From Gammaproteobacteria bacterium (lineage in GTDB: Bacteria; Pseudomonadota; Gammaproteobacteria; GCA-001735895): a DNA stretch of 64,000 nt. Shown in pieces: positions 11,381 to 58,369 of the stretch. How positions within the stretch are numbered: the stretch's first letter is position 1; each line of letters opens with the position of its first letter. Location of the stretch: NCBI GenBank assembly GCA_014382695.1, contig JACNJF010000194.1:861-64860 (forward strand), written 5' to 3'. The notes under the pieces were generated by a model. The model was not told the DNA's origin. It ran no database searches and was given only the letters and a program-made list of their open reading frames with translations. A program made the translations under genes and the position numbers.

Positions 11381-12769
11381 ATGGCATCCACCCATCAGGA
11401 TTCGCTTCAGGCGAAACGAATCGCTGGAATTATCAGCGTTGTTATCTTCATTCTGGTCGGCATCAACGGCATCTTCACCTATTCAGGCGCGCATCTGTTT
11501 ATCAAGGAGATGCTGTTTGCGATATTGTTTGCGATTGCGGTGCAGTTTTCTATCGCCATCAGCCTGATTGCACTGCCGTATGTTAAGGGCGTCGGTAAGC
11601 TGGTGTTGCTAGTGGTGTATGTCGCTGCCCTGACCCTTTCCACGCTATCGGCCTATACCTTCATCTACAATGCCGGATTGCCGGGTACCATTGGCGATAG
11701 TAATGCCGTTAATACCCAGCTGAAGGCGCGTGTGGCCAATCAGTTAAGCGAAGTGATACTGCTGGAACAGGGCTTTATCGATGCGCAGACCGAACGTCTT
11801 GCCTTTCTCAAGCGCCAGGCTGAAGAAGAAGCACTGCGTGGCTTTCGTTCCGGTCTGGGAGCAGGCAAAGGGCCTGAGTATTATCAGAAGATAGAAATGC
11901 TACAGGCGGATGAAGTCCGTTTTGAAGCACAAAAACGCAAGTATGCAGAAGCAAAAACCATCTATGCCGAGATGGATAGTGCGTTGATGCAAAACACTCA
12001 GGGCCAGCGTGAAATACTGATCCTGTTGCTGTCTCGGCTGAAGTCTGTTGTCATCACGGATGAATCGAAACAGATACTGTCGGATATTTCACAAAGCAAA
12101 CTGGCGATCATTCAAAGTCCAATCGAAACCGCGATGGGGGTCATCATGGATCGTGATGCCTATTCGATACAGCTCGCAGTGAGCATTATCTGGGCCGCTG
12201 TCTTTGACTTGCTGGCATTGTTTCTGGGCATTATCCGTTACTATATCCTGCGCCCGAATTATTCTATCCTGTCGGTTATTTACGATACTATTTCAGCCTT
12301 CGTGACCTTCATCATCCGGCTTGGCTATCTGAAAAAAGATGCGCGCCAGAAGTACAATCAGGAGCTGCAGAACCAGAGCCACGGTACCCCGCTAAACTCT
12401 TCAGAAATGCAGTCTTTTGCGACCTATGTGATGGCGGGCAGTTTATTCTCCGCCGGTGAAGATCAGAATGCGATTGAGCCTTTGCAGAATTTAATCAGCC
12501 ATATTGAGCCGCTGAAGCTGGCCAGTGATCCGCGCGGCGTCGGTATTCCGTTTGCGGTAGTGGATGAGCAGAAGGCGATGAAAACCCTGATGGCGATGTT
12601 GATTCAGAGTCAGGTATTTCTGTCTGATGTGGAAAACGGGGTGTATGTGATGAACCCTGGCAGCGAAATGGCGCAGAAGATTCTGGTGTTCATCAAGATG
12701 GGGCTGAAAGATCCGAGCAAACAAAAAGAACTATCGCGTTTTGCGATTCCAGCAGAGGCTAATGCCTAG
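11381..12769 (+). CDS. hypothetical polytopic membrane protein with central coiled-coil region (462 aa)
   Basis: Three N-terminal TM helices, a long charged/helical segment (EEEALRGF.., QADEVRFEAQKRKYAEAK), two further TM helices and a C-terminal soluble domain. No known domain recognised. Confidence 0.6.
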   Translation: MASTHQDSLQAKRIAGIISVVIFILVGINGIFTYSGAHLFIKEMLFAILFAIAVQFSIAISLIALPYVKGVGKLVLLVVYVAALTLSTLSAYTFIYNAGLPGTIGDSNAVNTQLKARVANQLSEVILLEQGFIDAQTERLAFLKRQAEEEALRGFRSGLGAGKGPEYYQKIEMLQADEVRFEAQKRKYAEAKTIYAEMDSALMQNTQGQREILILLLSRLKSVVITDESKQILSDISQSKLAIIQSPIETAMGVIMDRDAYSIQLAVSIIWAAVFDLLALFLGIIRYYILRPNYSILSVIYDTISAFVTFIIRLGYLKKDARQKYNQELQNQSHGTPLNSSEMQSFATYVMAGSLFSAGEDQNAIEPLQNLISHIEPLKLASDPRGVGIPFAVVDEQKAMKTLMAMLIQSQVFLSDVENGVYVMNPGSEMAQKILVFIKMGLKDPSKQKELSRFAIPAEANA

Positions 12770-17609: not shown

Positions 17610-17756
17610 AGGGCTTTTATACTCACGATTAAAAAAATACGATAAATTAGATTAATAAATCAGTATAAACTTGTTTTATAGTTCTGTACTAGGCGTCAGA
17701 TTCATATTAATGTAATGTCCAGTTTTTATGTGGTTTTAAGGTAAGAGAGAGCAGCA

Positions 17757-29136: not shown

Positions 29137-29474
29137 GTGGTTTTTCAGGAATGCAGGCCTGGCTGCTACAGCGTTTTAGCGCCATCTATATCGTATTGTT
29201 TGCCATCATATTGACCATGATACTGTGGGGTGGTGAAGAATTAAGCTACCCCACCTGGGTGGCATTATTTGCCCAGCCATGGCTGCAGGTGATGTCGAGC
29301 CTGTTTGTGGTCGCGTTACTTTTTCATGCCTGGATCGGGCTAAGAGATGTCATCCTGGATTATATCAAACCCGTTGGAATCAAAATGCTGGTTATGTCGG
29401 CGATAGTTTTTATGCTGCTAGCATCAGGATTCTGGTTATTACGTGCACTGTTACTAGTTGAAGTGATCTCATGA
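29133..29474 (+). CDS. sdhD: succinate dehydrogenase hydrophobic membrane anchor subunit
   Basis: Three TM helices. Overlaps sdhC and sdhA by 4 nt each. Confidence 0.8.
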   Translation: MSGFSGMQAWLLQRFSAIYIVLFAIILTMILWGGEELSYPTWVALFAQPWLQVMSSLFVVALLFHAWIGLRDVILDYIKPVGIKMLVMSAIVFMLLASGFWLLRALLLVEVIS

Positions 29475-31234
29475 GTTTAATAAGAAGAAAATTTGATGCC
29501 TTAATCATCGGCGCTGGCGGCGGCGGCTTACGCGCAGCGTTACAGCTTTCCCGCGCAGATGCCAACGTGGCCGTTGTTTCCAAAGTTTTCCCGACCCGTT
29601 CGCATACCGTTGCGGCGCAGGGTGGTGTGAATGCGGCGCTGGCGAATGTGCTGCCGGATAACTGGCACTGGCACATGTTTGATACCGTAAAGGGTAGCGA
29701 TTACCTGGGTGATCAGGACGCTATCGAGTATATGTGTCGAGTCGCACCGAAACTGGTGTATGAACTGGAACATTACGGGGTGCCTTTCTCACGCCTGGAT
29801 AACGGTAAGATTTATCAGCGTGCTTTCGGTGGGCAGAGTCAGAACTTTGGTGAAAAGCAGGCTGCCAGAACCTGTGCAGCGGCGGATCGAACCGGACATG
29901 CGATGCTGCATGCGCTGTATCAACAAAACATCCGTGCAAAAACCCATTTCTTTGATGAGTATTTTGCGACGGACATCATCAAGAACGAAGACGGTGTTGT
30001 ACTCGGTGCCATCATCGTCAGTATTCAAACCGGTGAAGCAATGCTGATCGAAGCCCGTACTACACTGCTGGCTACCGGCGGCGCTGGTCAGATTTACCGC
30101 ACCAATTCGAATGCATTGATCAATACTGGCGACGGTCTGGGTATGGTGTTAAGAGCCGATATTCCGTTGCAGGATATGGAATTTGTACAGTTTCACCCGA
30201 CTGGTATTGCCGGTATCGGCATGCTGATTACCGAAGGTTGTCGTGGCGAAGGTGGTTATCTGGTGAATGGCGATGGCGAACGCTTTATGGAGCGTTATGC
30301 ACCGAATGCCAAAGATCTGGCCAGTCGTGACGTGGTCAGTCGTTCTATCTTTCTTGAAGTGAAAGAGGGTAGAGGCTGCGGACCGGAAAAAGATTATGTG
30401 TTACTCAAACTGGATCATCTGGGTGCCGATACCATAATGAAACGCCTGCCGGGTATCCGTCAGTCCTGCATCACGTTCCTCGGTATAGACCCGATCAAAG
30501 AGCCGATTCCGGTTTATCCAACCTGTCATTATTTTATGGGTGGAATTCCGACCAACCGTAAGGGTGAAGTCGTGATGCCGGTTAAAGATACGCCGGAAGA
30601 AACCGTTCCCGGCCTGTATGCGGCGGGTGAATGTGCCTGCGTATCGGTGCATGGCGCGAACCGTCTGGGTGGCAACTCATTGCTCGATATCATTGTCTTT
30701 GGACGTGCTGCGGCGAATGAAATGATCAGCTATATGAAAGAAAACCAGTATCGCCTGCCGATGGATGAAAAAGCGGTGGAGAAGGCGATGGATCGTTTAC
30801 ATCGCTGGGATCGCAAGGGTAAGGGCGAAACCGTGGATGGACTGAAAGACGACCTGAAAAAAGTGATGGAGGATTACTGTGGCGTATACCGCACCCAGGA
30901 ATTACTCGATCAGGGTGTGATCGAAATGAAGAAAATTCGTGAACGCCTGCCGAATGTTTATATTGAAGACTTTTCCAGAACCTTCAATACGGCTCGTATA
31001 GAAGCCCTTGAGCTGGAAAATCTGGTCGATGTGGCGATGTGTACCGTAGTTGCTGCTGCCGCCAGACAGGAAAGTCGTGGAGCGCATTCACGTGTAGATT
31101 ATCCGGACCGGGATGATCAGAAGTGGATGAAACATAGCCTGTATTTCAAGAAAGATGACCGGATGGATTACAAACCCGTTCGCACCAAGCCATTGACGGT
31201 AGAATCATTTCCGCCTAAAGAACGCGTCTACTAG
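29471..31234 (+). CDS. sdhA: succinate dehydrogenase flavoprotein subunit
   Basis: FAD-binding GAGGAGLRAAL. Covalent-FAD His region (SHTVAAQGG). Catalytic HPTG, RLGGNSL. Confidence 0.96.
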   Translation: MSLIRRKFDALIIGAGGGGLRAALQLSRADANVAVVSKVFPTRSHTVAAQGGVNAALANVLPDNWHWHMFDTVKGSDYLGDQDAIEYMCRVAPKLVYELEHYGVPFSRLDNGKIYQRAFGGQSQNFGEKQAARTCAAADRTGHAMLHALYQQNIRAKTHFFDEYFATDIIKNEDGVVLGAIIVSIQTGEAMLIEARTTLLATGGAGQIYRTNSNALINTGDGLGMVLRADIPLQDMEFVQFHPTGIAGIGMLITEGCRGEGGYLVNGDGERFMERYAPNAKDLASRDVVSRSIFLEVKEGRGCGPEKDYVLLKLDHLGADTIMKRLPGIRQSCITFLGIDPIKEPIPVYPTCHYFMGGIPTNRKGEVVMPVKDTPEETVPGLYAAGECACVSVHGANRLGGNSLLDIIVFGRAAANEMISYMKENQYRLPMDEKAVEKAMDRLHRWDRKGKGETVDGLKDDLKKVMEDYCGVYRTQELLDQGVIEMKKIRERLPNVYIEDFSRTFNTARIEALELENLVDVAMCTVVAAAARQESRGAHSRVDYPDRDDQKWMKHSLYFKKDDRMDYKPVRTKPLTVESFPPKERVY

Positions 31235-31245
31235 GAGTCTGGGCC

Positions 31246-31941
31246 ATGAAATTCAATATTTTTAGATTTAATCCGGAAACCGATACAAAACCCTACATTC
31301 AGAGTTATGAATTACCGGGTGTGAATCCGGAAATGATGTTACTCGATGCTATTTTGACCCTGAAGAAAAAGGACCCGACACTTGGCTTTAGAAAGTCCTG
31401 TCGTGAAGGGGTGTGTGGTTCCGATGGGATGAATGTGAATGGGGTTAATCGTCTGGCCTGTGTAACGCGCCTGTCTGAATTGAGTGACCCGATTGAACTG
31501 CGTCCATTACCTGGATTGCCGGTTATTCGTGATCTGATCATCGATATGGAGCAGTTTTATAAGCAGTATCGCGCGGTTAAGCCGTATCTGATCGGCTCTG
31601 AACCAGAGCCTGAAGTGGAACGCCTGCAAACACCAAAGCAGCGCGAGTTACTGGATGGTCTGTATGAATGTATTCTGTGTGGCTGTTGCTCGACGGCCTG
31701 TCCGTCGTTCTGGTGGAACCCGGATAAATTCCTGGGTCCTGCAGCGCTGCTACAGGCGTCACGTTTTATCGAAGACAGTCGTGATGAAGCCACGGTTGAG
31801 CGTCTGGAACAGCTGGATGATGCTTACAAGCTATATCGTTGCCATACCATCATGAACTGTGTACAGGTTTGCCCGAAAGAGTTGAATCCAACCAAAGCTA
31901 TCGGTCGAATCAAAGAACGCATGGTACAGAAAAAACTATAG
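31246..31941 (+). CDS. sdhB: succinate dehydrogenase iron-sulfur subunit
   Basis: 2Fe-2S (CREGVCGSDGMNVNG), 4Fe-4S (CILCGCCSTACPS) and 3Fe-4S (CHTIMNCVQVCP) cysteine clusters. Confidence 0.96.
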   Translation: MKFNIFRFNPETDTKPYIQSYELPGVNPEMMLLDAILTLKKKDPTLGFRKSCREGVCGSDGMNVNGVNRLACVTRLSELSDPIELRPLPGLPVIRDLIIDMEQFYKQYRAVKPYLIGSEPEPEVERLQTPKQRELLDGLYECILCGCCSTACPSFWWNPDKFLGPAALLQASRFIEDSRDEATVERLEQLDDAYKLYRCHTIMNCVQVCPKELNPTKAIGRIKERMVQKKL

Positions 31942-34985: not shown

Positions 34986-35363
34986 ATGGCATATAGTGAA
35001 AAAGTACTGGATCATTATGAGAATCCGCGCAACGTCGGCGTAATCGATGAAGATGACAGTGTAGGCACCGGTATGGTTGGTGCTCCTGCCTGTGGTGATG
35101 TGATGAAGCTACAGATCAAGGTTAGTAAAGATGGCATTATTGAAGATGCTAAATTTAAAACCTATGGCTGTGGTTCAGCGATTGCATCCAGCTCGCTGGT
35201 AACCGAATGGGTAAAGGGTAAAACCCTGGATCAGGCGGCAGAAATCAAAAATACCCATATTGCTGAAGAGCTGGCCTTACCACCGGTTAAGATCCATTGC
35301 TCGGTACTGGCAGAAGATGCGATTGCTGCTGCAATCTCCAACTACCGACAGAAACATCAGTAA
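34986..35363 (+). CDS. iscU: Fe-S cluster scaffold IscU
   Basis: MAYSEKVLDHYENPRNVG ... GAPACGDVMKLQIKV ... YGCGSAIASSS ... LPPVKIHCS, nearly identical to E. coli IscU. Confidence 0.97.
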   Translation: MAYSEKVLDHYENPRNVGVIDEDDSVGTGMVGAPACGDVMKLQIKVSKDGIIEDAKFKTYGCGSAIASSSLVTEWVKGKTLDQAAEIKNTHIAEELALPPVKIHCSVLAEDAIAAAISNYRQKHQ

Positions 35364-35376
35364 ATGTGAGACAGAA

Positions 35377-35403
35377 AAAGCCTGCGTAAGCAGGCTTTTT
35401 TTT
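35377..35403 (+). terminator. rho-independent terminator after iscU (aaagcctgc-gtaa-gcaggctttttttt)
   Basis: 9-bp GC-rich stem, GNRA-like loop and T8 run, 14 nt after the iscU stop. Confidence 0.8.
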
Positions 35404-35414
35404 GAGCTGAATCC

Positions 35415-35606
35415 ATGCTAACGAACAACTTGCCGAACTGGGCCAGATGGATTGCGATGGATGAAGATGGTTGCTGGTGGTGTTATGAAGCCGAACCGCA
35501 GCAGCATGATCGTGGGTGGTATGAGAATGAAGTGGGGCGAACTCAGCGTTTAAAATTAATACGCCAGACAGACTGGCAACATAGTCTGCAAAAAGTGCCT
35601 GGCTAA
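35415..35606 (+). CDS. possible small Trp-rich protein (63 aa, 8 Trp)
   Basis: ORF directly after the iscU terminator. W-rich composition (NWARWIAMDEDGCWWCYE...GWYENE). No clear ribosome-binding site, so confidence is low. Confidence 0.3.
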   Translation: MLTNNLPNWARWIAMDEDGCWWCYEAEPQQHDRGWYENEVGRTQRLKLIRQTDWQHSLQKVPG

Positions 35607-35611
35607 AACGG

Positions 35612-36166
35612 TTAGAGTGTAGTGTTTCCTGCGGGCCCGATATTCATTCCTATCGACAGTCGATAGTGCTCGGATCTGTTTTCAGTGACACGATGGGGAG
35701 TCGCGGGGTCAAAAAAGATGAAATTCCCGCTAACTGGTTTGATGACGATGCTCTGTTCTGGTGTTTCGAGTACCAGGTCACCCGAATTTTCAGGCACCGA
35801 CAGATAGATAACCCCGGAAATTAATTCGTCAAAATCATCATGTCGATGCAGTGTTGTGACATGCCCGGGTTGCATCAGGTTGAACCAGTAGCCGATCTTT
35901 AACTCATCTGTGCACATGCCAAGTAGTTCTGCACAGTAGCCCAGGCTTTCTTCGAGTAGCCTTTCTAAATCGGTATTTTGAATGGTTTTCAGATAGATAT
36001 TTTCAAACCGTTGATGAAAATAATGGGTCTTTTTGAGGTTATTAGCATTCTGCTCCAGCTGTTGCTGCAGGTAGCGATCGATAGCACTAAGCTGGGAGGC
36101 GCTTAACTGGCTGATTCGCCGGATATAGGGGGTTTGGCTAAATAATCTCGGTGTGACGAGTGACAC
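35612..36166 (-). CDS. putative 2OG-Fe(II) oxygenase-like cupin protein (TIGR02466-like conserved hypothetical)
   Basis: H-x-D ... H pattern (TLHRHDD ... PHRV) on a predicted double-stranded beta-helix. 184 aa. Confidence 0.5.
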   Translation of the reverse strand: MSLVTPRLFSQTPYIRRISQLSASQLSAIDRYLQQQLEQNANNLKKTHYFHQRFENIYLKTIQNTDLERLLEESLGYCAELLGMCTDELKIGYWFNLMQPGHVTTLHRHDDFDELISGVIYLSVPENSGDLVLETPEQSIVIKPVSGNFIFFDPATPHRVTENRSEHYRLSIGMNIGPAGNTTL

Positions 36167-36239
36167 GACAGTATCAAAGGTAGAGTACGGATAAATAAAT
36201 GCGGGTCAGAGTTTTCTGGCCCGCATTGTGTCGACCCGA

Positions 36240-36431
36240 TTACTTCCAGTTTTCGAAGTTATCCGTTGATTTTTCCTGACCATCTTCGTAACCAGCAGAA
36301 TAGGCATCGTTAACCTGTTGCTCTTCTCTTTCCGGATGACCCAGGTAACCACCCTGCCAGCCGATTATGTATTGTTCCTGTAAACCCATTTCTTCCATTT
36401 TAGTCGTTGCATCACGATAAGCTTGATCCAT
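36240..36431 (-). CDS. hypothetical small acidic protein (63 aa)
   Basis: Intact ORF with GGAG ribosome-binding site (gaggagaatgttatg on the minus strand). Acidic, Tyr/Gly-rich. Confidence 0.4.
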   Translation of the reverse strand: MDQAYRDATTKMEEMGLQEQYIIGWQGGYLGHPEREEQQVNDAYSAGYEDGQEKSTDNFENWK

Positions 36432-36656
36432 AACATTCTCCTCAAATTCAGACGATAAAAAAAGATTATTTGGCGCTGTAGCGCACTCGTAAGAATTGCC
36501 ACAGGCCGAAAAATGTGAGTATTTTACTAGAAAAAACGCAGTTTATAATATCTCTATTGGGAGTATGCGTGGATTTACGTCCCATCAGGGATATTCGAAT
36601 AATAATGAATAATGATTATTATTATCAACAGTTTATTTATCAGGAGTATATATTTG

Positions 36657-37082
36657 ATGACTACCGATGCTGATATGAATTTTATTAGTGGTATGTCGGC
36701 CTTTGAATCTAAAGAGTTCATCCGCGCCGTACAGTTTTTACTACCCTTTGCCGAAAAAGGTGACCCGGATGCCCAGCACCGTGTTGCTATCATGTACCAA
36801 AATGGTCTGGGCATGGTGAAAAAGGAAGCACTGGCTTTCAAGTGGATGAAAGCGGCCGCTGACCAGGGCCATGCGGTTGCACAGCATGGACTCGGGTTTA
36901 TGTATATGGATGGCGATTGTGTTGAAAAGGATGGCGCCAAAGCGGTTGAATGGTTTAGCAAGGCTGCCGATCAGGGGCTGGTCGGCTCGATGACGACACT
37001 TGCCATGATGTATGAATCTGGTGATGGGATTGAGAAAGACCCAGAGAAAGCAAAAGAACTTTACGCGAAGGCGGGGTTTTAA
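36657..37082 (+). CDS. Sel1-repeat (TPR-like) protein
   Basis: Three to four tandem Sel1 repeats (A.....G.G......A..W..KAA.QG...AQ..LG.MY..G). AGGAG ribosome-binding site 10 nt before this ATG. The ORF track's longer start at 36612 lies in an AT-rich promoter-like tract. Stop overlaps the next gene's ATG (TAATG). Confidence 0.8.
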   Translation: MTTDADMNFISGMSAFESKEFIRAVQFLLPFAEKGDPDAQHRVAIMYQNGLGMVKKEALAFKWMKAAADQGHAVAQHGLGFMYMDGDCVEKDGAKAVEWFSKAADQGLVGSMTTLAMMYESGDGIEKDPEKAKELYAKAGF

Positions 37083-38125
37083 TGCGTCCTGCGTTTTTGT
37101 CCAAAGTTCTGGAAGAAGAACTACTGGGAACGCTTAAAGGTCATCACACACCGGTGATGGTATGGGGCCCGCCAGGGGTTGGCAAATCACAGATCGTGCT
37201 GCAGATTGGGCAAACCCATAAGCTGCCGGTGATCGATATCCGGCTATCTCAGATGGAACCGAGCGATTTGCGCGGTATCCCGTTTAAACAGGGCAGTAAG
37301 GTTGAATGGGCGGTACCTTCGATGTTGCCCGATGCTAAAACCCATGGCAGTTCAGGCATTCTGTTTCTGGATGAAATAAATTCGGCAGCCCCTTCGGTGT
37401 CAGCAGCGGCCTATCAGCTTATCCTGGATCGCCGACTGGGGAACTATGAAGTACCGCAGGGCTGGGCCATCTTTGCTGCCGGCAACCGACAGGGCGATCG
37501 TGGAGTGACCTATGCGATGCCTGCACCACTGGCGAATCGCTTCTCACATTATGAAATCGATCTGCATCTGGATGACTGGGTGGCCTGGGCCTATAAAAAC
37601 GGTATCGATGAACGCATCATCGGTTTTTTACGTTTTCGCCCGGAGTTACTGTTTGATTTTGATCCGGCGCACAACCCGGTCGCTTTTCCATCACCGCGTT
37701 CCTGGGAGTTTGCTCATCGCGCATTACAAAAATTTATCGATTACCCGAATCTGTTGCTGGGTTCGTTACAGGCCTGTGTTGGTCCTGCGGCAGGAATCGA
37801 ATGTCATGCGTTTATTGAAAGTCTGGATCAAATGCCGGATCTGGATAAGATTATCAATGGTGAAGACATCAAGGCACCGGATGAAATCGACCTGCAATAT
37901 GCAGTGGCTTCTGCACTGGTAGGCCGTGCGATTCGTGCTCAGTCGAGCGCGCAGTCGGCGACTATCTATGGCAATATCCTTAACTATGCGGGTCGTTTTC
38001 CGCAGCGTGAAATGGGTGTAATGCTGGTATCGGATATGCATCGGGCGATTGGTAATGATCTGTTTGAACTGACCGAATTTGCCAGCTGGGCCGATTCTAT
38101 TGCCGATCTGATTCTGTACGACTGA
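37082..38125 (+). CDS. MoxR/AAA_5-type AAA+ ATPase
   Basis: Walker A GPPGVGKS, Walker B ILFLDEIN, sensor/arginine-finger region AAGNRQGDRG...LANRF. Translationally coupled to the upstream (TAATG) and downstream (9-nt gap) genes. Confidence 0.85.
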   Translation: MRPAFLSKVLEEELLGTLKGHHTPVMVWGPPGVGKSQIVLQIGQTHKLPVIDIRLSQMEPSDLRGIPFKQGSKVEWAVPSMLPDAKTHGSSGILFLDEINSAAPSVSAAAYQLILDRRLGNYEVPQGWAIFAAGNRQGDRGVTYAMPAPLANRFSHYEIDLHLDDWVAWAYKNGIDERIIGFLRFRPELLFDFDPAHNPVAFPSPRSWEFAHRALQKFIDYPNLLLGSLQACVGPAAGIECHAFIESLDQMPDLDKIINGEDIKAPDEIDLQYAVASALVGRAIRAQSSAQSATIYGNILNYAGRFPQREMGVMLVSDMHRAIGNDLFELTEFASWADSIADLILYD

Positions 38126-38134
38126 TGACGGTTC

Positions 38135-39505
38135 GTGGATAGTTCACTCGAAGCAATTGAAAACAAATTGAGTGCAGCGCGCACTCGATTGATCCTGGAT
38201 AAACCATTTTTGGGGGCGCTGGTGTTGCGTCTGCCGTTGCAGGCGGCCGATCCGAGCTGGTGTGCAACCACCGGTACCGATGCCCGAAAGTTCTATTACA
38301 ATCCGGCCTATATTCAGGAGCTGCGCGCCGATGAAACCCAGTTTGTGCTGGCACACGAAGCCCTGCATTGCGCGCTGTCGCATTTTGCACGGCGCGGTCA
38401 TCGGGTTAAACACCGCTGGGATATCGCCTGTGATTATGCGATTAATCCGCTGCTGTTAGATGAAGGGCTGAAGCCGCCACCCGGCTCTCTGATGCTGCGT
38501 GAGTACCGTGGGATGACGGCGGAGGAAATCTATCCGATGATTCAGGATAACGATATGTCCGAGTCGCTGGATCAGCATCTGTACGATAAACAGGAGCAAA
38601 CCGAAGGCGGGCAGGATAAACAGCAAAATCCACTCGATCAGAAGGATTCAAAAAGTCAGTCTGGTGGTGAAGGTCAGGTGCAACGGCAGGATCAGTCGAA
38701 TAAACCTGCACAGGGCAATCAGCCTGACGAACCGGCGGATAGCGAAAAAAATCCGCAGCAGGATGAAAGCGCGGGCCTGCCGAGACAGAGCAACGATCAG
38801 TTACCCGGAAAAGCCAGCGGTGCCGCCAGTAAAGACCTGCAAAGCAGTGCACCGCAGCCGTTAACCGAATCAGAAAAATCAGATCTGCATGTGCAGTGGC
38901 AGCAGCGACTGGCTGGTTCGGCACAACAGGCGCAGCAGGCCGGTAAGCTGGGTGAAGGCATCGCGCGCATGATCGATTTTTTTCTGCAGCCGACCTTACC
39001 CTGGCGTGTATTACTGGCACGCCATATGAACAGTATTTCGCGCGACGATTACAGCTACACGCGGCCTTCCAGCCGGCGTGGCGATCCGGCGATCTATCCC
39101 AGCCTGCGTAGCCCGCAGATGAACGTGGTGGTCGCTGTCGATGTCAGTGGTTCGATCGACAAGGATGAGCTGGATGAGTTTGTGGCGGAAGTCGATTCAC
39201 TCAAATCCCAGGTTCGGGCGCGTGTCACTTTTCTGACCTGTGATTCAAAGATAACCGGTGATAGTCCTCAGATTTTTGAAGCCTGGGAGTATTGCCGCCT
39301 GCCGGAACGTATTATGGGTGGAGGCAGCACCGATTTTAACCCGGTGTTTGAGTGGGTCGAACGGCATGATGTGAAGCCGGATCTGCTGGTTTACTTTACC
39401 GACGCGGATGGACGATTCCCTCGCTGTCAGGCGCCTTATCCGGTGATCTGGCTGGTGAAAGGCCGTAAGGCCGTTCCCTGGGGCCAGAGAATTCAATTAA
39501 ATTAA
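38135..39505 (+). CDS. HExxH metallopeptidase-like N-domain + low-complexity linker + C-terminal von Willebrand A domain protein (DUF2201-like)
   Basis: LAHEALHCALSH (HExxH) near the N-terminus. ~110-aa Q/D/P/S/G-rich low-complexity segment. vWA MIDAS motif DVSGS (VVAVDVSGSIDKDEL). Probable GTG start. Confidence 0.8.
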   Translation: MDSSLEAIENKLSAARTRLILDKPFLGALVLRLPLQAADPSWCATTGTDARKFYYNPAYIQELRADETQFVLAHEALHCALSHFARRGHRVKHRWDIACDYAINPLLLDEGLKPPPGSLMLREYRGMTAEEIYPMIQDNDMSESLDQHLYDKQEQTEGGQDKQQNPLDQKDSKSQSGGEGQVQRQDQSNKPAQGNQPDEPADSEKNPQQDESAGLPRQSNDQLPGKASGAASKDLQSSAPQPLTESEKSDLHVQWQQRLAGSAQQAQQAGKLGEGIARMIDFFLQPTLPWRVLLARHMNSISRDDYSYTRPSSRRGDPAIYPSLRSPQMNVVVAVDVSGSIDKDELDEFVAEVDSLKSQVRARVTFLTCDSKITGDSPQIFEAWEYCRLPERIMGGGSTDFNPVFEWVERHDVKPDLLVYFTDADGRFPRCQAPYPVIWLVKGRKAVPWGQRIQLN

Positions 39506-39513
39506 GCGGTCTT

Positions 39514-40632
39514 ATGCAATTATCCAATGAAGATAACCTGCGCCTGAATGTGTTGCTGGCGCAGGACCTGAAAGCGGTTCGCATCGATGAATCGAAAATG
39601 ATCGTGTATGCCTTATCCAGTCGCGGGGATGCCAAAATCCAGCTCAATCCGACTGGCAAGGATGAAAAATATATCCGCCTGGTAAAAGAGCTGCTGTCGA
39701 ACAAGATTATGGGTTCTCCTGGCGGTTATCCGGTGTATATCAAGCGCTGGACACGCATGGGGCAGGAACGTCAGCAGGAAAGCCTGGCGCAATTGCTGTT
39801 ACTGGGTGAGCCGGAAGCGGTGGTGGCGGTGGTGCATGCTCCAACCCTGAGTACCGATATCGCACGCCATGCGTGGTGGGCATTCCCGTCCTCTGAAAAT
39901 GCGCGCCGGTTACTGGAAAAAAAATCCATCGTGGATTCCGATCTGGCGCGAGAGCTGGTCGAGTTTTTACTCGAGTTCCTGCCGTTTGAGATAGAGCACA
40001 GAGACATGATCGATTCGGTTCGATTATGCCTGCAAAATGACCTGTTAACCGCTGCTGAAATCGACGATCTGTGGAAACGGGCGCGGCGTAAACAGAGTCT
40101 GTATGTCGGGTTTTTACACAGCCAGCCGGATGCTCTGCCGGATCAGGCCGGTGCACATCCGCTGTATAAACCGTTGCAGCAGTCTTTGCAGCCACTGGTC
40201 GAGCAGGGCAATGTGTACGCGATCCAGCTATTGCGCTACCTGTCGGAGCCGGGGCAGGGCTTTCTCAGAACCATCATCCGGGTGCTTGAAAAAGCCGCCA
40301 GCCAGGATACGATCGTTTCACTGTTTCAGGCGCTGTCAAACTATAACCGCCTGTTACCTCTGGCATCGGTGAAGCAGCGCGATATCAAGAATGCGGAGCA
40401 GCTGGTCACGGTATGGATAAGTGGCAAGCAGGATGAGCAACTGGTGAGCTGTCTTGAGGCCTGTGCACAATATAGCGATCAGATTCGAGCCATGCTGGTC
40501 ATATCTCAGCTGGATGAAGTGACGCTGTTTCCGATTTTTGGCCTGACCGATGCACTGGGCACGGTGATGCGCAAAAAACTTGAGCCGGTCACCGGCCCTT
40601 TATTGCAACATATCCGGCAGCTGTTACATTAG
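39514..40632 (+). CDS. hypothetical 372-aa helical protein, fourth gene of the Sel1-AAA-vWA operon
   Basis: Starts 8 nt after the vWA stop. No recognisable domain or motif. Predicted soluble, alpha-helical. Confidence 0.7.
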   Translation: MQLSNEDNLRLNVLLAQDLKAVRIDESKMIVYALSSRGDAKIQLNPTGKDEKYIRLVKELLSNKIMGSPGGYPVYIKRWTRMGQERQQESLAQLLLLGEPEAVVAVVHAPTLSTDIARHAWWAFPSSENARRLLEKKSIVDSDLARELVEFLLEFLPFEIEHRDMIDSVRLCLQNDLLTAAEIDDLWKRARRKQSLYVGFLHSQPDALPDQAGAHPLYKPLQQSLQPLVEQGNVYAIQLLRYLSEPGQGFLRTIIRVLEKAASQDTIVSLFQALSNYNRLLPLASVKQRDIKNAEQLVTVWISGKQDEQLVSCLEACAQYSDQIRAMLVISQLDEVTLFPIFGLTDALGTVMRKKLEPVTGPLLQHIRQLLH

Positions 40633-40731
40633 GCGAAGTTCGTGGAGTGCAACTATCGGTTGCGCGATGTTTTCTATATAATGATTTCCTTATATTAAAT
40701 TTAAGGCCTCCAACTGGAGCGGGTGTATGCG

Positions 40732-42132
40732 ATGAAGTACCTTCCGATATTTTATGAAATCACCGATAAGCCCTGTGTAGTGATCGGAGGCGGGGGGATT
40801 GCCGCACGTAAAGCCGACCTGTTACATCAGGCGGGTGCCAGAGTCAGTGTGATTTCCCCCGAGCTGGGCGATGAAATGTCGCGCTTTCAACAACAGGGTA
40901 AGATTAGCTGGCAGCAACGTAATTTTGAGGCAGGTGATCTGACCGATTATTTTCTGGTGATCGCCGCAACCAGTGACAGGCGGGTCAATGAACAGGCTGC
41001 GGCTGAAGCACTGGTGCTGAAGATTCCCTGTAATGTGGTGGATAACCCAGAGCTATGCAGTTTCATCATGCCTTCGATTATCAACCGGGATCCAGTACAG
41101 ATTGCGGTATCTACCGGTGGCGCATCACCGGTGCTAGCACGTCTGATTCGGACCAATCTGGAAAGCTGTACGCCATCGGCCTATGGCAAGCTGGCGAAGC
41201 TGGTCGAAAAGTATCGTGACCGGGTCAAAAGTACCTTCCCACGCGTGGTCGAGCGTCGTAAATTCTGGGAGTCTATTCTGGAAGGGCCGGTGGCTGAACA
41301 TATCTTTGCCGGTCGTAACGACGATGCCCGACAGTTGATTGAACAACTGATCGACAAGGCCGATTCCAACCCGTCCTATAAAGGTGAAGTGTTTCTGGTA
41401 GGTGCCGGTCCGGGAGACCCCGACCTGCTCACCTTTCGCGCCTTACGCCTGATGCAAAAGGCCGATGTCATCGTCTACGATCGACTGGTTTCGCAACCGA
41501 TCATGGATCTGGTGCGGCGTGACGCGGAGCGCATCTACGCCGGCAAGGAACGCTCCCATCATGCGATACCCCAGGAAAACATCAATCAGTTGCTGGTGCG
41601 GTTGGCCAAAGAAGGCAAACGTGTACTACGCCTGAAAGGTGGCGATAACTTCATTTTCGGACGCGGTGGTGAAGAAATATCTGAATTGATCGATGAAGAT
41701 ATCCCGTTTCAGGTCGTGCCCGGTATAACTGCCGCTTCCGGTTGTACAACCTACGCAGGTATTCCGTTAACCCACCGTGATTATGCGCAGGCCTGTATCT
41801 TTGTGACCGGCCACCTGAAGGATGGCTCCAGTGATCTGAACTGGGATATGTTGTCGCATGCGAATCAAACGGTGGTTTTTTACATGGGGCTGGTGAATGT
41901 TCAGTCGATCTGCGATTCACTCAAACAACATGGCCGAGCCGCCTCTACACCGGCTGCGTTGATCGAAAAAGGTACAACGCCGGAACAACGGGTTTTTATC
42001 GGTGATCTGGATACCTTACCGGGGCTGGTGAACCAGAATAATGTCAAGGCCCCGACCCTGATTGTGGTCGGTGAAGTGGTGGAGTTGCATAAGAAACTGC
42101 ACTGGTTCAAGCCGGGCGAAGAGATTAAATAG
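40732..42132 (+). CDS. cysG: siroheme synthase (uroporphyrinogen-III C-methyltransferase / precorrin-2 dehydrogenase / sirohydrochlorin ferrochelatase)
   Basis: Colinear with E. coli CysG (LPIF...GGG.VA.RKA.LL; VVLVGAGPGD.LLT; RLKGGD.FIFGRGGEE; VPGITAASGC..YAGIPLTHRDYAQ). The ORF track's start 3 codons upstream (40723) is also possible. Confidence 0.95.
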   Translation: MKYLPIFYEITDKPCVVIGGGGIAARKADLLHQAGARVSVISPELGDEMSRFQQQGKISWQQRNFEAGDLTDYFLVIAATSDRRVNEQAAAEALVLKIPCNVVDNPELCSFIMPSIINRDPVQIAVSTGGASPVLARLIRTNLESCTPSAYGKLAKLVEKYRDRVKSTFPRVVERRKFWESILEGPVAEHIFAGRNDDARQLIEQLIDKADSNPSYKGEVFLVGAGPGDPDLLTFRALRLMQKADVIVYDRLVSQPIMDLVRRDAERIYAGKERSHHAIPQENINQLLVRLAKEGKRVLRLKGGDNFIFGRGGEEISELIDEDIPFQVVPGITAASGCTTYAGIPLTHRDYAQACIFVTGHLKDGSSDLNWDMLSHANQTVVFYMGLVNVQSICDSLKQHGRAASTPAALIEKGTTPEQRVFIGDLDTLPGLVNQNNVKAPTLIVVGEVVELHKKLHWFKPGEEIK

Positions 42133-42236
42133 CCCCGTAGAGTGTTCCTGTAGGACTATGATGGCAATCATGCTTCTTCCTGAGGTGTATTACCTGGCGT
42201 TGCCAATTACATTGAAAACTAGTTTGTACCATCTCA

Positions 42237-42812
42237 GTGCTGATTTCCGAGTATCCGATGCTTAAAAGCTATTTTAAAAGGATGTGTGGTCAGGGCGATA
42301 AATGCCGTGAAACTTATACCCCTGTCTGGTTACTGTGGTCAGTTGTGGGGGGATCGCTTGCCATACTGATCATCTCCTTTACCCATCAGTGGATACCGAT
42401 TTCGCATGCCAGCAGTCTGTTTTTGATCGGCTCTTTTGGTGCCTCTTCGGTTCTCATTTTCGGCACACCGAATGTACCCTATGCCCAGCCCAGGAACCTG
42501 CTCGGAGGGCATCTGATCTCTGCCCTGATCGGGGTGACGATCGCTCAATATGTGATTTTACCGATTGAATTTCAGGCGGCGCTGGTGGTTTCGCTGGCGA
42601 TACTGTTTATGCTGCTCACCAATACGGTGCATCCACCCGGCGGGGCAACCGGGCTGATCGCCGTAATCGGACATGATGGAGTGCATGAAATGGGTTACCA
42701 CTTCGTGTTGCAACCAGTACTGTCAGGCCTGTTGATCATGCTGGTGATTGCGTTGCTGTTCAATAATCTGAGTTCTGATTGTGAACGTCATTATCCCCGG
42801 CACTGGTGGTAG
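42237..42812 (+). CDS. HPP-family membrane protein
   Basis: Four TM helices and the characteristic VHPPGGATGL motif. Confidence 0.75.
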   Translation: MLISEYPMLKSYFKRMCGQGDKCRETYTPVWLLWSVVGGSLAILIISFTHQWIPISHASSLFLIGSFGASSVLIFGTPNVPYAQPRNLLGGHLISALIGVTIAQYVILPIEFQAALVVSLAILFMLLTNTVHPPGGATGLIAVIGHDGVHEMGYHFVLQPVLSGLLIMLVIALLFNNLSSDCERHYPRHWW

Positions 42813-46039: not shown

Positions 46040-46843
46040 TTGACTCTGGTGACCCGGATGAATCTTCAATTACAACTTGCCCTTCAGGTTTTGCTGCTAC
46101 CGCTGGTACTGTCTTTTGTGGTGTGGCATGCGGGCTTAAAAAGTCATCGATTTAACCTGCTAGCATTGTTTCTAATCTGGGTTATCAGTTTTGTGTGGAT
46201 AAAAGGCATGCCAGCTTTTCCACCTGCAGAAGCGGTAGAGTGGGTGGTATTAATCGGCCTGCTGTATGCCATTATCAGTATCAGCTTTAAATCTGCCGTC
46301 ATTCCATTGCTGCTGAATGCCGCCATTTTGTTGCTTGGAATTGTAATCTTGACCTGGCCGGTACTGATCCGTGCTTCAGACCCACAGTTTTTTTTAGAAC
46401 TCTTTTTGTTTGCTTCACTCGGAATAATAATACCCCTCCTCTTGAAACGCGCTTCTCCTTCCAGTCCAGCTTTAACAGTGGGAATCAGCAATGCTGGTCT
46501 CGCTGCGATATCTGGGCTGGGTGGGAGTCTTTTAATTGGACAACTGGCTGGGGTCGCGGCCTCGTTGCTGGGTGCTTTTATACTGTATGAGCTGCTTTCA
46601 AAACTGCACAATTCTGAATTACCACCTCGATCCCTTAATCTGATGGTGAACCTGCATATCTGGCTTGCGCTAATCGCTAGAGTATATGCGGAAGTGGCAC
46701 TTATTCCCGTTGTACTGGTTAGTCTGTCGTTGTTGTTTGGTTTGACCGTTCGCTGGCGCTACGCCTCTGTAGTGTCGTTACTGTTGAGTTTGGGAGCTTT
46801 GGGCTGGTTGTTAGCGACCAGCGATAACTCCAGCTATTACTAG
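46040..46843 (+). CDS. hypothetical polytopic membrane protein (267 aa)
   Basis: At least 7 hydrophobic helices. No motif recognised. Start may be the ATG (MNLQL) 18 nt downstream of the TTG given in the track. Confidence 0.5.
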   Translation: MTLVTRMNLQLQLALQVLLLPLVLSFVVWHAGLKSHRFNLLALFLIWVISFVWIKGMPAFPPAEAVEWVVLIGLLYAIISISFKSAVIPLLLNAAILLLGIVILTWPVLIRASDPQFFLELFLFASLGIIIPLLLKRASPSSPALTVGISNAGLAAISGLGGSLLIGQLAGVAASLLGAFILYELLSKLHNSELPPRSLNLMVNLHIWLALIARVYAEVALIPVVLVSLSLLFGLTVRWRYASVVSLLLSLGALGWLLATSDNSSYY

Positions 46844-52610: not shown

Positions 52611-53771
52611 TCATGCTGGCCAGTATTCCGTCTGTATGGATTCTCCTAAATCGGCATCGATCAGACGCTGTCTGACTTCGAGCAGTTTTTTAATTAATGC
52701 TGGTTCCGCCTTCTCATAGGCGGCTGCATCCGGCGCACGCTTAACAACCACGCCGAGTAATTCTGTAATCGCATTGCCTATCGAGTTCTGGCTGATGGTG
52801 ACGACCCATTTGCCACTATCGTTACGATAGATAAGCTGCTTGAAAGCCGGCTGCCAGCGTATCGCGTTGGCATATTGCGCGTTTTTAATGCACTGGTCAC
52901 GTACAATCTTGGCGGTGCTCAAAAAATCATTATTAAAGAGCAGCTTTTCTGTTACCTGTTGCGGGAAATTGACATTTTTTGGGATGGCAGCATTGCGCGT
53001 TGAAACCTGGCTGAAAAAAGTGCGGTAAAAATCGATAAACCCTTTTAGAATGATATCGTACTCTTGCCAGAATTTAACCTCCTTTATGGAATCCAGACCA
53101 CCACTAATCTCCCAGCAGGGAAGTCCCTGCGGGTAACCGGTCAACATCAGCTGCGACGAATCGCCAGTCATCGGTTTTAGTATTTCCAGCTCCAGGGTGT
53201 CGAAAAAAGCACAATAGGCATCATGCATATAGCTTTGAAACAGACTGTGCTGGCCACCATCGGTGAGGTTTGGGTTGTTAGTTTCAGCCAGCGGAGCATC
53301 ACGCAGTTGCTGTTTATCGAATACGATGAAATGATTGTGCAGCATGCGGATGCTGGGAACTCCAGCGGAGGTCAGCGGCCAGGTTGCATCCAGACTGGCT
53401 TCACCACACAGCAGCAGATGATTTTTCGGGTTGGGGAAAATCTCGTGCATGTAGCTGATCAGAATCTGGTTCATGCGGTTCCAGACATTGCGTACATTTT
53501 CCGGTACCTGAGTGCGCCTTACCGGACGACCCAGCGGATCCAGTATAACCTTGGATGTGTTGTAAATGATGGAGGCGTCGAATACATTGGAGTGTCCCAG
53601 CGCCTTCCGATACATTAACAGGTTTTCATCGTTGCGTAACAGACCGTTGTTATGCTCAAGATCATTCAGGTTTTCTGTGCTGTTGAAAAATTCATTCGGT
53701 TTCATACCTTCTGGCACATCCAGTGGAATGGGCCGGAATGGCGTGGTTATTTCTCTTGGTCCGGTGGTCAT
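52611..53771 (-). CDS. hypothetical cytoplasmic 386-aa protein, no recognisable family
   Basis: Long intact ORF, no signal peptide or TM. Only a weak H-x-H-hydrophobic (MLHNHFIVF) tract reminiscent of HIT/GalT-like nucleotidyl-transfer motifs. Confidence 0.6.
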   Translation of the reverse strand: MTTGPREITTPFRPIPLDVPEGMKPNEFFNSTENLNDLEHNNGLLRNDENLLMYRKALGHSNVFDASIIYNTSKVILDPLGRPVRRTQVPENVRNVWNRMNQILISYMHEIFPNPKNHLLLCGEASLDATWPLTSAGVPSIRMLHNHFIVFDKQQLRDAPLAETNNPNLTDGGQHSLFQSYMHDAYCAFFDTLELEILKPMTGDSSQLMLTGYPQGLPCWEISGGLDSIKEVKFWQEYDIILKGFIDFYRTFFSQVSTRNAAIPKNVNFPQQVTEKLLFNNDFLSTAKIVRDQCIKNAQYANAIRWQPAFKQLIYRNDSGKWVVTISQNSIGNAITELLGVVVKRAPDAAAYEKAEPALIKKLLEVRQRLIDADLGESIQTEYWPA

Positions 53772-56785: not shown

Positions 56786-58369
56786 CTAGTTTTTAATCAG
56801 CTTCAGAACATCACTGTTTGAGATTAAGGCTATTGGCTGAAAGTTGATGTAACGCGGCATCTTGTTGAGCGTTTCGGTAACCTGAGCCTGGTCATCGAAC
56901 TGACCGCCGTAGATCAGGTTGTATTGATCTTTATCATCGATGAAGTAAGCCAGCTCCTGGGTAAAGTAGTGATTGTAACGTTGCGCTATTTCAAACAGTT
57001 CCTGCTTTTTGGCAACCGTGGCAACCTTGATGGAATACTTGTCAGGATTCAGTTTGACCAGCCATTGTGACCCATGAATGGTATTCTTCGAGCCAAAGTT
57101 ATACAGTGGTGCGAGATATTGAACGCGCCCATCCAGGCTTTCGACTTCATCGTTCATTGCTTTCATATCCTGCTGGATCAGCTGGGTTTTTTCCTGCAAA
57201 TCCTGTTGAACCTGATTCAGGTTTTTCTGTAACTCGATGATTTCAGAGTAAAATACCTGCGATGCCATCTGCTCATCCTGCACTCGACTCTCCAGCTGTG
57301 TGACCTGTTCGTTGATGACTTCATTATGCTGAACGGTAACCGCCTGTTGCGTATCACGTTGATATTCTGCGTAAAAAAAGATGGCGATCACGGCCAGCAA
57401 TAACAGTAAACTCGATGCCGCCAGTGCTTTGAAATGCTTTCTCTCCAGACTTGCCAGTGCCAGCAGGGTACGCGTCAGGGAACCGGTTTTGTCACTCAGG
57501 GTATCGATCTGTCCCTGTTGTTCGATATTCTGTTGCTGCAGACGCGCGGTATGTAATTCGAGTGCCTCCACATCTCCAGACAGCTTGCTGGTCAGTATAT
57601 CCAGGGTGTCGGTGGAGTCTTTCAGTGTTTCACTGTCTTCGATCAGTTTGGCAGAAACCGCTTCCAGAGAAGCGGCACGCTTTTCCAGTGCTGCATCGAC
57701 GCTTTGCATCAGCAGCATTTTTGCTTTCTGGCTATCAATCGCTTTATCAGCGGACTTTATCTTGCTGTCCAGCGTATCATCACGCTGTTGAGTCGACTGA
57801 GCGAGTTGCTCTAGTTCAGCGATAATTTTTACTTCCAGTGTAGTAATCGCCTTGCTGTTATCTTTGATGCTTTTGTTCAATTTGGTGCTGATTGTCGATA
57901 CTTTTTTGGATAAAGTTTCGGCACGCGCAATCAGATCCACATGCTGCTGTCTAAATTCGACATTGACTTCAGTCTGGCTTTGAATAGCTTCATTCAGCGC
58001 CTTGCTGGATGATTTTTCGAATGATTTGATCGCGCTGTTGACCGCTTTCAAATCGCTGCTCATCTTATTTGACTGCAGGTTTAATTCCTTAAAGGATGTT
58101 TCGATGATTCCTAGCTGCTTATAAGTGTCAGCTACTTTTTCAGACAGTCCTGCTTCCGATGTTGACAGGCGTTCGACATCGGTATTGATCTGTTTGTTGC
58201 TGCTATTGATTTTTTTATTCAGTTTGGCAATGGTAGCTTCCAGAGCCGACATCTGTTTATTAATTTCCATCACCTGTTTTTCCTTGCCGTTTTCCTGCAA
58301 TGGAACCAGATTACCTTTTGCCACAGGGGCATCGCTGACTTTATCCAGCTTTTTATTTTCTTGAGCCAT
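56786..58369 (-). CDS. coiled-coil membrane protein with C-terminal SPOR (peptidoglycan-binding) domain, DamX-like
   Basis: ~320 aa of heptad-rich coiled coil. Single TM (LLLLAVIAIFFYA). Further coiled coil. C-terminal SPOR-like fold (YSIKVATVAKKQELFEIAQRY ... NLIYGGQFDDQAQ). Confidence 0.7.
   Translation of the reverse strand: MAQENKKLDKVSDAPVAKGNLVPLQENGKEKQVMEINKQMSALEATIAKLNKKINSSNKQINTDVERLSTSEAGLSEKVADTYKQLGIIETSFKELNLQSNKMSSDLKAVNSAIKSFEKSSSKALNEAIQSQTEVNVEFRQQHVDLIARAETLSKKVSTISTKLNKSIKDNSKAITTLEVKIIAELEQLAQSTQQRDDTLDSKIKSADKAIDSQKAKMLLMQSVDAALEKRAASLEAVSAKLIEDSETLKDSTDTLDILTSKLSGDVEALELHTARLQQQNIEQQGQIDTLSDKTGSLTRTLLALASLERKHFKALAASSLLLLLAVIAIFFYAEYQRDTQQAVTVQHNEVINEQVTQLESRVQDEQMASQVFYSEIIELQKNLNQVQQDLQEKTQLIQQDMKAMNDEVESLDGRVQYLAPLYNFGSKNTIHGSQWLVKLNPDKYSIKVATVAKKQELFEIAQRYNHYFTQELAYFIDDKDQYNLIYGGQFDDQAQVTETLNKMPRYINFQPIALISNSDVLKLIKN

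Follow-up and report, generated by a model that had tools for sequence, protein, structure and literature searches.

Gene Organization of the Locus

We analysed a 64,000-nt stretch of the Gammaproteobacteria bacterium contig JACNJF010000194.1 (the window), in which a preliminary description had proposed a co-directional operon of four genes; all coordinates, there and here, are positions in the window. The four plus-strand open reading frames (ORFs) encode, in order, a Sel1-repeat protein, a MoxR-clade AAA+ ATPase, a protein that joins a HExxH zincin peptidase domain to a domain of von Willebrand factor A (vWA) type with a metal ion-dependent adhesion site (MIDAS), and a 372-aa protein, here called P4 (Table 1). 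The junctions were read directly. The Sel1 stop codon and the ATPase start codon form TAATG with a 1-nt overlap, the vWA gene starts with GTG 9 nt after the ATPase TGA, the P4 ATG follows the vWA-gene TAA by 8 nt, and the cysG ORF begins 90 nt past the P4 TAG. The ORF list and these junctions bore out the proposed operon, including its ~90-nt separation from cysG.

The Pfam search recovered all of the domains that had been predicted, namely Sel1, an AAA_5/MoxR-type ATPase, DUF2201_N (HExxH) and DUF2201 (vWA), and NCBIfam and PADLOC scans of the four proteins gave nothing above threshold. The earlier reading is essentially right; it overlooked a 63-aa gene that diverges from Sel1. For Sel1, ATG 36657 is more likely to be the start codon than ATG 36612, because AGGAG (36642-36646) precedes it with a 10-nt spacer. 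ATG 36612 falls within one of the conserved palindromes of the upstream region (AATAATGATTATTATT).

Table 1. Features of the four-gene locus and of its borders in the window (RBS, ribosome-binding site).
Feature	Position	Strand	Description and basis
Cytoplasmic Sel1-repeat protein	36657-37082	+	141 aa from RBS-supported start; ORF extends back to 36612 (36612-37082, 156 aa); Pfam Sel1
MoxR-clade AAA+ ATPase	37082-38125	+	347 aa; Pfam AAA_5, PHROG 1297, invariant motifs
Zincin-peptidase/vWA fusion	38135-39505	+	456 aa; Pfam DUF2201_N and DUF2201
Peptidase domain of vWA protein	38354-38383 (motif)	+	residues 1-145; HEALHCALSH at residues 74-83
Linker of vWA protein			residues 145-236, disordered, acidic/Gln-rich; then helical segment
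vWA/MIDAS domain	39119-39502	+	residues 329-456; D336-x-S338-x-S340, T399, D423
P4	39514-40632	+	372 aa; undescribed conserved family
63-aa acidic protein	36243-36431	-	MDQAYRDATTKMEEMGLQEQYIIGWQGGYLGHPEREEQ...; divergent from Sel1; translated ORF
Divergent intergenic/regulatory region	36432-36656	.	conserved blocks in alignment of 9 close relatives
TATAAT	36544-36549	.	in conserved block TTTATAATATCTCTATTGGGAG; 9-relative alignment
Conserved palindrome	36580-36591	.	TCCCATCAGGGA; 9-relative alignment
Conserved non-coding palindrome	36608-36623	.	AATAATGATTATTATT; 9-relative alignment
cysG, trifunctional siroheme synthase	40723-42132	+	Pfam TP_methylase, NAD_binding_7, CysG_dimeriser, Sirohm_synth_M

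Conservation of the Gene Cluster in Related Genomes

Related loci were collected by scanning one genome per species, and the best 80 of 579 P4 relatives were kept. Their hosts belong almost without exception to sulfur-oxidiser lineages of the Gammaproteobacteria (Thiotrichaceae, Thiohalobacter, Thiogranum, Thiohalophilus, Ectothiorhodospiraceae and Parabeggiatoa). Architectures were counted in the 59 loci with enough upstream sequence, and linkage was assessed at the P4 locus only. The order Sel1-ATPase-vWA-P4 on one strand was found in 40 of the 59, Sel1-P4 with nothing between in 13, ATPase-vWA-P4 in 3 and P4 alone in 3. The median identities to the window proteins were 75% for the ATPase, 66% for Sel1 (across 64 loci), 54% for the vWA protein and 50% for P4. 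Because 40 loci keep order and strand at ~50% P4 identity, the cluster is real and its arrangement is kept far beyond chance. It is a strongly conserved gene set of sulfur-oxidiser-type Gammaproteobacteria, in which the MoxR-clade ATPase, its MIDAS-vWA partner with an N-terminal HExxH zincin, and the Sel1 and domain-less proteins alongside are co-conserved.

The preliminary description had asked whether the 372-aa gene always co-occurs with the others. It does so in the 40 four-gene loci; in 13 others only Sel1 accompanies it, and in Thiothrix there is no linkage between the ATPase and vWA genes. In Thiothrix nivea the two genes (vWA, 60% identity; ATPase, 78%) are each solitary and megabases apart, and the vWA gene is also solitary on a Thiothrix caldifontis-type contig. 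In a Thiofilum sp. (locus L087, 4965-9036) the ATPase gene overlaps the vWA gene, and ~0.6 kb from them the opposite strand carries the P4 homolog (48% identity). A dual-specificity phosphatase-like gene is located there between the vWA gene and the P4 homolog, and a BatD/VWA_2 (Bat-like) cluster adjoins. Since 13 loci have Sel1-P4 by itself and Thiothrix keeps the other two genes apart, the cluster is made of two separable sub-modules, ATPase+vWA and Sel1+P4, which usually, not always, form one operon.

Co-translation had been deduced from the tight spacing. That spacing is present in the window and is not universal, as the intergenic gaps in relatives have medians of 30-60 nt and extend to ~190 nt or more; translational coupling this tight characterises the clade to which the window belongs and is not found in all of the more distant relatives. 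Where the ATPase and vWA genes are missing, Sel1 is coupled straight to P4 (-4/-1 nt), and 6 of 11 such loci show an overlap of 1 or 4 nt between the two genes. The solitary genes of Thiothrix, and gaps that reach 100-200 nt in many relatives, are what can be said for the view that these are four unrelated housekeeping genes, adjacent by chance or by inherited synteny. The neighbourhood conservation contradicts this view, which we consider very improbable: order and strand are kept in most loci, stop and start codons overlap, Sel1 and P4 re-join precisely without the middle genes, P4 stays adjacent even when inverted (Thiofilum), and the adjacency of ATPase and vWA genes is independently kept in phages and plasmids.

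The ATPase and Its Zincin-vWA Partner

The ATPase matched Pfam AAA_5 with 36.2 bits (cutoff 22) and AAA with an E value of 5.8e-8. Its AAA+ core has the Walker A (G29-P-P-G-V-G-K35-S36), Walker B (D97-E98) and sensor-1 (N135) residues of the MoxR clade, all invariant in 28 homologs. Moreover, Arg residues R136, R140 and R153 and a C-terminal domain of ~190 aa are conserved, and the mean column identity in these homologs is 82%. The signature of the MoxR clade is a helix-2 insert and a pre-sensor-1 beta-hairpin; on a by-eye reading, the segments EPSDLRGIPF...VEW (beta2 to Walker B) and RRLGNYEVPQGW (before sensor 1) resemble the MoxR consensus. The domains that mark the named MoxR subfamilies (AAA_3 for MRP, CbbQ_C for CGN and LARA for RavA) were not matched, AAA_3 scoring 19.6 (cutoff 27) and the CbbQ_C and RavA domains giving no Pfam match, and no NCBIfam equivalog was found. 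The best PDB sequence matches were the AAA modules of Midasin (1.7e-7) and NorQ (0.005). The ATPase has a median identity of 75% where P4 has 50% and is therefore unusually strongly constrained, so the sequence comparison indicates very strong purifying selection. The gene for its vWA/MIDAS partner adjoins it downstream, and this adjacency is kept in relatives, phages and plasmids.

The partner matched DUF2201_N (2.7e-43, 148.9 bits, cutoff 23.2) and DUF2201 (1.1e-23, 84.1 bits, cutoff 26.4). The zincin residues H74-E75-x-x-H78 and H83 and the full MIDAS set D336-x-S338-x-S340/T399/D423 are invariant in 36 homologs, and H74, E75, H78, H83 and D100 remain invariant when cyanophage, jumbo-phage and Burkholderia plasmid members are added. 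The protein has both domains of the DUF2201_N/DUF2201 (COG3864-type) family, with catalytic and MIDAS residues intact. The N-terminal domain was placed among the M48-like zincins because its profile matches the minigluzincin MJ1213 (2.6e-4) and, more weakly, HtpX (0.086) and BepA (~0.4). With these M48-type zincins and minigluzincins (MJ1213/projannalysin, HtpX, BepA) it has in common a core of beta-strand and HExxH helix, and in BepA a zincin is also joined with TPR-like repeats. However, the similarity is weak and local, and the H83/D100 ligand pattern and the vWA fusion are specific to DUF2201_N.

Sel1, P4 and the Divergent 63-aa Gene

The Sel1 protein contains three repeats (Pfam Sel1, 3.9e-31, 106.8 bits, cutoff 30.7) and is predicted to be an adaptor or scaffold. 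The named Sel1-like repeat equivalogs MerG, ExoR, AlgK and MotX were all far below their NCBIfam cutoffs.

P4 had been called an orphan and a protein with no detectable domains. The latter description stood, as P4 matched nothing in Pfam (VMAP families included), NCBIfam, PADLOC, PHROG or PDB-profile searches. It is not an orphan, and belongs to a large conserved family. Among the candidates searched there are > 3,741 homologs at an E value of 1e-3 or better, and an exhaustive profile search gave 516 clusters at 50% identity, of which 404 reach 1e-10 or better. The full-length members have, in practically every case, ~370 aa and a single architecture. No homolog was found in GenBank phages or IMG/VR, and no plasmid-linked homologs were found. 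In the AlphaFold2 model (predicted local distance difference test, pLDDT, 85.8), P4 consists of a small alpha/beta N-domain (1-65), a loop (66-85) and an all-helical solenoid (88-372). The loop, GSPGGYPVYIKRWTRMGQ, was modelled at pLDDT < 50 and contains the invariant motif S68, G71-Y72-P73, Y75, R78-W79, R81, G83-Q84 and R86. A segment that is invariant yet disordered is typical of an element that becomes ordered upon partner binding, and the loop is the likely docking or cleavage element.

The 63-aa ORF was found by tblastn in 57 of the 80 related loci at 47-94% identity, with every match on the minus strand upstream of Sel1. It accompanies both the four-gene and the Sel1-P4 architectures, matched no Pfam family, and is probably a fifth component of the cluster. 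In the region between it and Sel1, the conserved blocks are invariant in the alignment of close relatives, against a mean column identity of 50%. Both palindromes are possible operator sites. The AT-rich promoter that had been proposed here amounts to a consensus match, with 11 sites against 7.6 +/- 2.8 expected by shuffling; the promoter-like matches at 36496-36525 and 36574-36603 are not above shuffle expectation. Rfam gave no riboswitch or leader match in 35300-42300.

Phage and Plasmid Homologs of the ATPase-vWA Pair

Both proteins of the motor pair have full-length counterparts in phages. The ATPase matched phrog_1297 at 1.2e-92 (residues 21-344 on profile positions 24-353 of 356), and the vWA protein matched phrog_1314 at 1.3e-83 (profile positions 7-390 of 394). 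By tblastn, 853 phage records matched the ATPase and 526 the vWA protein. The carriers include N4 (gp25), N4-like phages, PA5oct-type and other jumbo phages, Bacillus phage G and cyanophage S-TIM5, in which the pair comes after hsp20. The PHROG 1314 family is labelled 'HNH endonuclease', and its phage zincin-vWA members (e.g., locus L083, 5927-7075, of cyanophage S-TIM5) are widely annotated in this way, which looks like a mis-annotation spread from the HExxH motif.

The pairing of such an ATPase with a peptidase-vWA protein is already known. The 14 core genes of N4-like phages include those of N4 gp24 ('unknown') and gp25 ('vWFA domain'). A 'previously unrecognized' jumbo-phage pair of MoxR and N-terminal-metallopeptidase-vWA proteins was described computationally and predicted to act in the assembly and processing of virions (Iyer et al., 2021; PMC7824862). 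Both the N4 pair (gp24/gp25) and that of the jumbo phages belong to the same two families over their full length, with the same adjacency and the same HExxHxxxxH...D and MIDAS motifs, and are likewise without a characterised function. In contrast to the phage pair, the cellular version is core-chromosomal and vertically conserved, with ~75% ATPase identity, and sits between Sel1 and P4 with the divergent 63-aa gene; P4 has no phage homolog, and the phage proteins are only 25-48% identical. New with respect to the literature are the existence of an N4-gp24/gp25-type pair in cellular core genomes and its dedicated partners, namely Sel1, the undescribed family of P4 and the 63-aa protein.

Plasmids carry the vWA homolog too, in 132 records. 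On the one plasmid inspected, the Burkholderia vietnamiensis conjugative plasmid pMSMB608 (locus L085, 3930-7230), the genes for an ATPase, a hypothetical protein of 308 aa and a DUF2201 vWA protein form a trio immediately upstream of a VirB-type type IV secretion system.

These homologs raise the possibility that the ATPase-vWA pair does a phage- or plasmid-type job, such as the remodelling or removal of proteins while DNA is being replicated or established, or the building of a large structure, and that the locus is a domesticated mobile-element module or an anti-phage/conflict system. The full-length PHROG matches, the numerous phage and plasmid records and the neighbouring secretion genes on the one plasmid are consistent with it, as are weak PADLOC/NCBIfam matches to DolB and IetA/IteA and the existence of MoxR-vWA conflict systems in the literature. 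However, the defence matches are far below the cutoffs: PADLOC gave only partial P-loop matches of 15-19 bits, bpMoxR scored 17.9 (cutoff 27), and no VMAP, iSTAND or effector domains were found in Pfam. Moreover, core-genome synteny over ~50% protein divergence and extreme ATPase conservation are the opposite of defence-island behaviour, P4 has no homolog in phages or IMG/VR, and the window has no integrase, tRNA or GC shift. We regard this explanation as improbable. A plain defence-system reading was rejected, as the PADLOC and NCBIfam matches are sub-threshold, and on the Pfam and PADLOC results the cluster is not one of the vWA-MoxR conflict systems with a VMAP, iSTAND or beta-propeller third component.

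Comparison With Characterised MoxR-vWA Systems

The two-component architecture is that of known MoxR-vWA maturation systems, and the locus could be one of these (NorQ/NorD, CbbQ/CbbO, CoxD/CoxE, RavA/ViaA, GvpN, or a CobS/CobT or BchI/BchD chelatase) with its client encoded elsewhere. The weak PDB match to NorQ agrees with this, as does the match of phrog_249 (CobS-like, 'porphyrin biosynthesis'; 2.4e-9), which covers only the P-loop region of the ATPase, and the acidic linker before the vWA domain recalls BchD/CobT. On the other hand, there is no Pfam match to CbbQ_C, RavA, ViaA, NorD, CoxE or Mg_chelatase and no NCBIfam equivalog, the zincin domain is in none of those partners, the best full-length matches are uncharacterised phage families, and the window has no CobN/BchH-like large subunit. 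A bona fide known system, which the preliminary description had itself raised as an objection, is thus hardly credible. The identities NorQ/D, CbbQ/O, CoxD/E, RavA/ViaA and chelatase were ruled out because their family signatures were not found in Pfam or NCBIfam.

The comparison with individual systems shows where the locus departs from them. Unlike the cofactor-insertion or activase systems NorQ-NorD, CbbQ-CbbO and CoxD-CoxE, the module lacks CbbQ_C, its vWA partner carries a zincin peptidase, there are two extra proteins, Sel1 and P4, and no client enzyme is encoded in the window. This agrees with the earlier statement that no known client lies nearby: no Rubisco, nitric oxide reductase (NOR), carbon monoxide dehydrogenase (CODH), gas-vesicle or siroheme enzyme was found within the 64 kb. 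RavA-ViaA of Escherichia coli is also an AAA+ MoxR motor with a vWA cofactor in one operon. It has a functional link to Fe-S/cysteine pathways and respiratory-complex maturation and a genetic link to the isc and cys operons, which the isc/cysG neighbourhood of the module echoes. However, no RavA- or ViaA-type family was matched in Pfam or NCBIfam, ViaA has no peptidase domain, and the LARA and triple-helix domains of RavA are not in the module ATPase. Midasin/Rea1, the MIDAS-bearing AAA+ protein of eukaryotic ribosome assembly, is a single polypeptide of 4,700-5,000 residues with six AAA modules and no peptidase, whereas the module is made of separate small proteins. For the class I chelatases (CobNST, BchHID), neither an Mg_chelatase nor a CobT match was obtained, and no CobN/BchH-like ORF, which would encode the large (> 1,100 aa) tetrapyrrole-binding subunit, is present in the window.

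Proposed Function

We favour the interpretation that the locus encodes a chromosomal housekeeping machine for ATP-dependent protein remodelling and processing, to which we give a probability of roughly 55%. The MoxR-vWA mechanism is established in the literature for NorQ/D, CbbQ/O, CoxD/E, RavA/ViaA and the chelatases, and a mechanism is proposed here because of the homology with these characterised pairs. By this analogy, we infer that the 347-aa MoxR-clade ATPase, presumably hexameric, would be the motor, and that its ring would pass ATP-driven force to the docked 456-aa partner. The C-terminal MIDAS-vWA domain of the partner may grip an acidic residue of the target, and the HExxHxxxxH zincin, carried on the long flexible acidic linker, may cut the target or an inhibitory or assembly factor. 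Sel1 and the solenoid protein P4, probably with the 63-aa protein, would form a separate sub-module always kept together, and might serve as a specificity adaptor, a scaffold or the client itself. Docking or cleavage would most probably take place at the disordered loop 66-85 of P4.

Several points weigh against this proposal. The peptidase domain, though intact in its motifs, could be regulatory instead of catalytic. In Thiothrix the genes of the motor pair are unlinked and each stands alone, so that physical cooperation of the pair with Sel1/P4 is presumed. Moreover, literature searches found no experimental work on any member, phage N4 gp24/gp25 included, which agrees with the earlier remark that no experimental characterisation was known for the pairing of an ATPase with a HExxH-vWA protein; searches for COG3864 or DUF6866 found no publication.

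Association With cysG and Genomic Context

The genes around the module in the window are FtsK-LolA-RarA, DsbC, SdhAB-like, DUF1249, IscRSU and a 2-oxoglutarate (2OG) oxygenase on one side and CysG, HPP and SulP on the other. The window is core chromosome, with no GC anomaly, tRNA or integrase, and on these grounds a prophage or genomic island was rejected.

The most persistent outside neighbour of the module is cysG. Of 69 loci, 41 have it downstream of P4 at a distance of no more than 2.5 kb, and in 10 of 36 loci at most 20 nt separate the two genes. It is found near P4 in at least three arrangements with differing downstream flanks (HPP-SulP, GltB and secreted-vWA genes), and in 15 loci a glutaredoxin gene stands between the two. 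From this gene order, cysG is possibly a functional associate of the module. In the other 28 of the 69 loci no cysG is nearby, and P4 is there followed by c6-arsC-dapD-dapC. The c6 gene (~180 aa) directly follows P4 in about 28-32 loci. Further neighbours in relatives, all of them upstream, are c5 (~204 aa), on the same strand in 33 loci, a DUF6866 protein (349 aa) in 32 loci, a 2OG-FeII_Oxy_3 protein (c8) and a TrpD-like Glycos_transf_3 protein. These conserved unknown genes were located in loci L013-L080 (e.g., L077, 8132-8674; L067, 1891-2505; L038, 788-1837). The window has no c5, c6, DUF6866, c8-type oxygenase or TrpD-like neighbour.

The position of cysG suggests a more specific role, in which the task of the machine would be to mature or repair an enzyme with siroheme/[4Fe-4S] (reverse DsrAB, or an assimilatory sulfite or nitrite reductase) or to deliver siroheme, with P4 and Sel1 as client-specific adaptors and cysG, and in some genomes grx, in the same functional unit. 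The recurrence of cysG in several arrangements, at times almost abutting P4, and the interposed glutaredoxin genes point this way. So do the position of the module between iscRSU and cysG-HPP-SulP in the window, the mostly sulfur-oxidiser hosts, and the precedents of metal-cofactor insertion by MoxR-vWA systems and of the genetic link between RavA-ViaA and the isc and cys operons. However, about two-fifths of the loci (28/69) have no cysG nearby, and regional synteny is generally kept, c8-c7-c5-c9 included, so that the adjacency may be merely inherited. In the window, cysG has its own -10-like box (TATATAAT) in the 90-nt spacer after P4. Moreover, the phage and plasmid homologs of the motor pair show no obvious siroheme connection, and no siroheme enzyme is encoded in the window. 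In the literature, nothing was found that joins MoxR, Sel1 and sulfur, and for MoxR and siroheme only the RavA paper was found. Siroheme/Fe-S maturation is the most attractive specific hypothesis; it is only suggestive, and we hold it to be rather unlikely. Its fullest form is a vertically inherited, hitherto unrecognised siroheme/[4Fe-4S] maturation machine of sulfur-oxidising Gammaproteobacteria with five parts (the 63-aa protein, Sel1, ATPase, zincin-MIDAS protein and P4), and is more doubtful still. If true, it would account for why the module stays so persistently coupled to cysG, and to grx and isc.

Other features of the window were recorded. Two 2OG-Fe(II) oxygenase genes are present on the minus strand (35612-36166 and 6548-7219), and the one at 35612 takes the divergent upstream slot that a different 2OG oxygenase family, c8, fills in more distant relatives. 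SdhA/SdhB-like (or FrdA/FrdB-like) flavoprotein and Fe-S subunit genes (29471-31941, plus strand) lie ~5 kb upstream of the module. RavA-ViaA in E. coli is linked to fumarate reductase and Nuo; adjacency of the SdhA/SdhB-like genes to the module was not seen conserved in related loci. At the window edge is a Cas6 gene (504-1196, plus strand; Pfam Cas6, 3.6e-57). No CRISPR repeats were found in 1-2300, and any array or other cas genes would therefore lie outside the window. Cyclic di-GMP signalling genes are dense at 2191-6531 and 13414-19847, comprising a 1446-aa SBP-GAF-PAS-GGDEF-EAL protein, a CHASE-PAS histidine kinase, an Hpt-REC-GGDEF protein and a REC-PAS-GGDEF-EAL protein. ORFs without a Pfam family at an E value of 1e-5 or better are located at 11381-12769 (462 aa), 46040-46843 (267 aa), 52611-53771 (386 aa) and 56786-58369 (527 aa).

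Significance of the Locus

MoxR-vWA pairs are recurrent, poorly understood dedicated chaperones, and their peptidase-bearing branch (DUF2201; N4 gp24/gp25, jumbo phages and many plasmids) has no characterised member. The locus described here defines at least two protein families without a Pfam entry, P4 and the 63-aa protein, and supplies candidate adaptors or clients for the motor pair, together with a genetic setting free of phage complexity. Should the five-part siroheme/[4Fe-4S] machine prove true, it would give a first functional handle on the core phage pair of the N4 gp24/gp25 type. The locus shows that the motor pair, tied to two or three dedicated and undescribed partners (Sel1, P4 and the 63-aa protein) and often to cysG, has a core-genome function under high constraint across a large group of Gammaproteobacteria of the chemolithoautotroph type.

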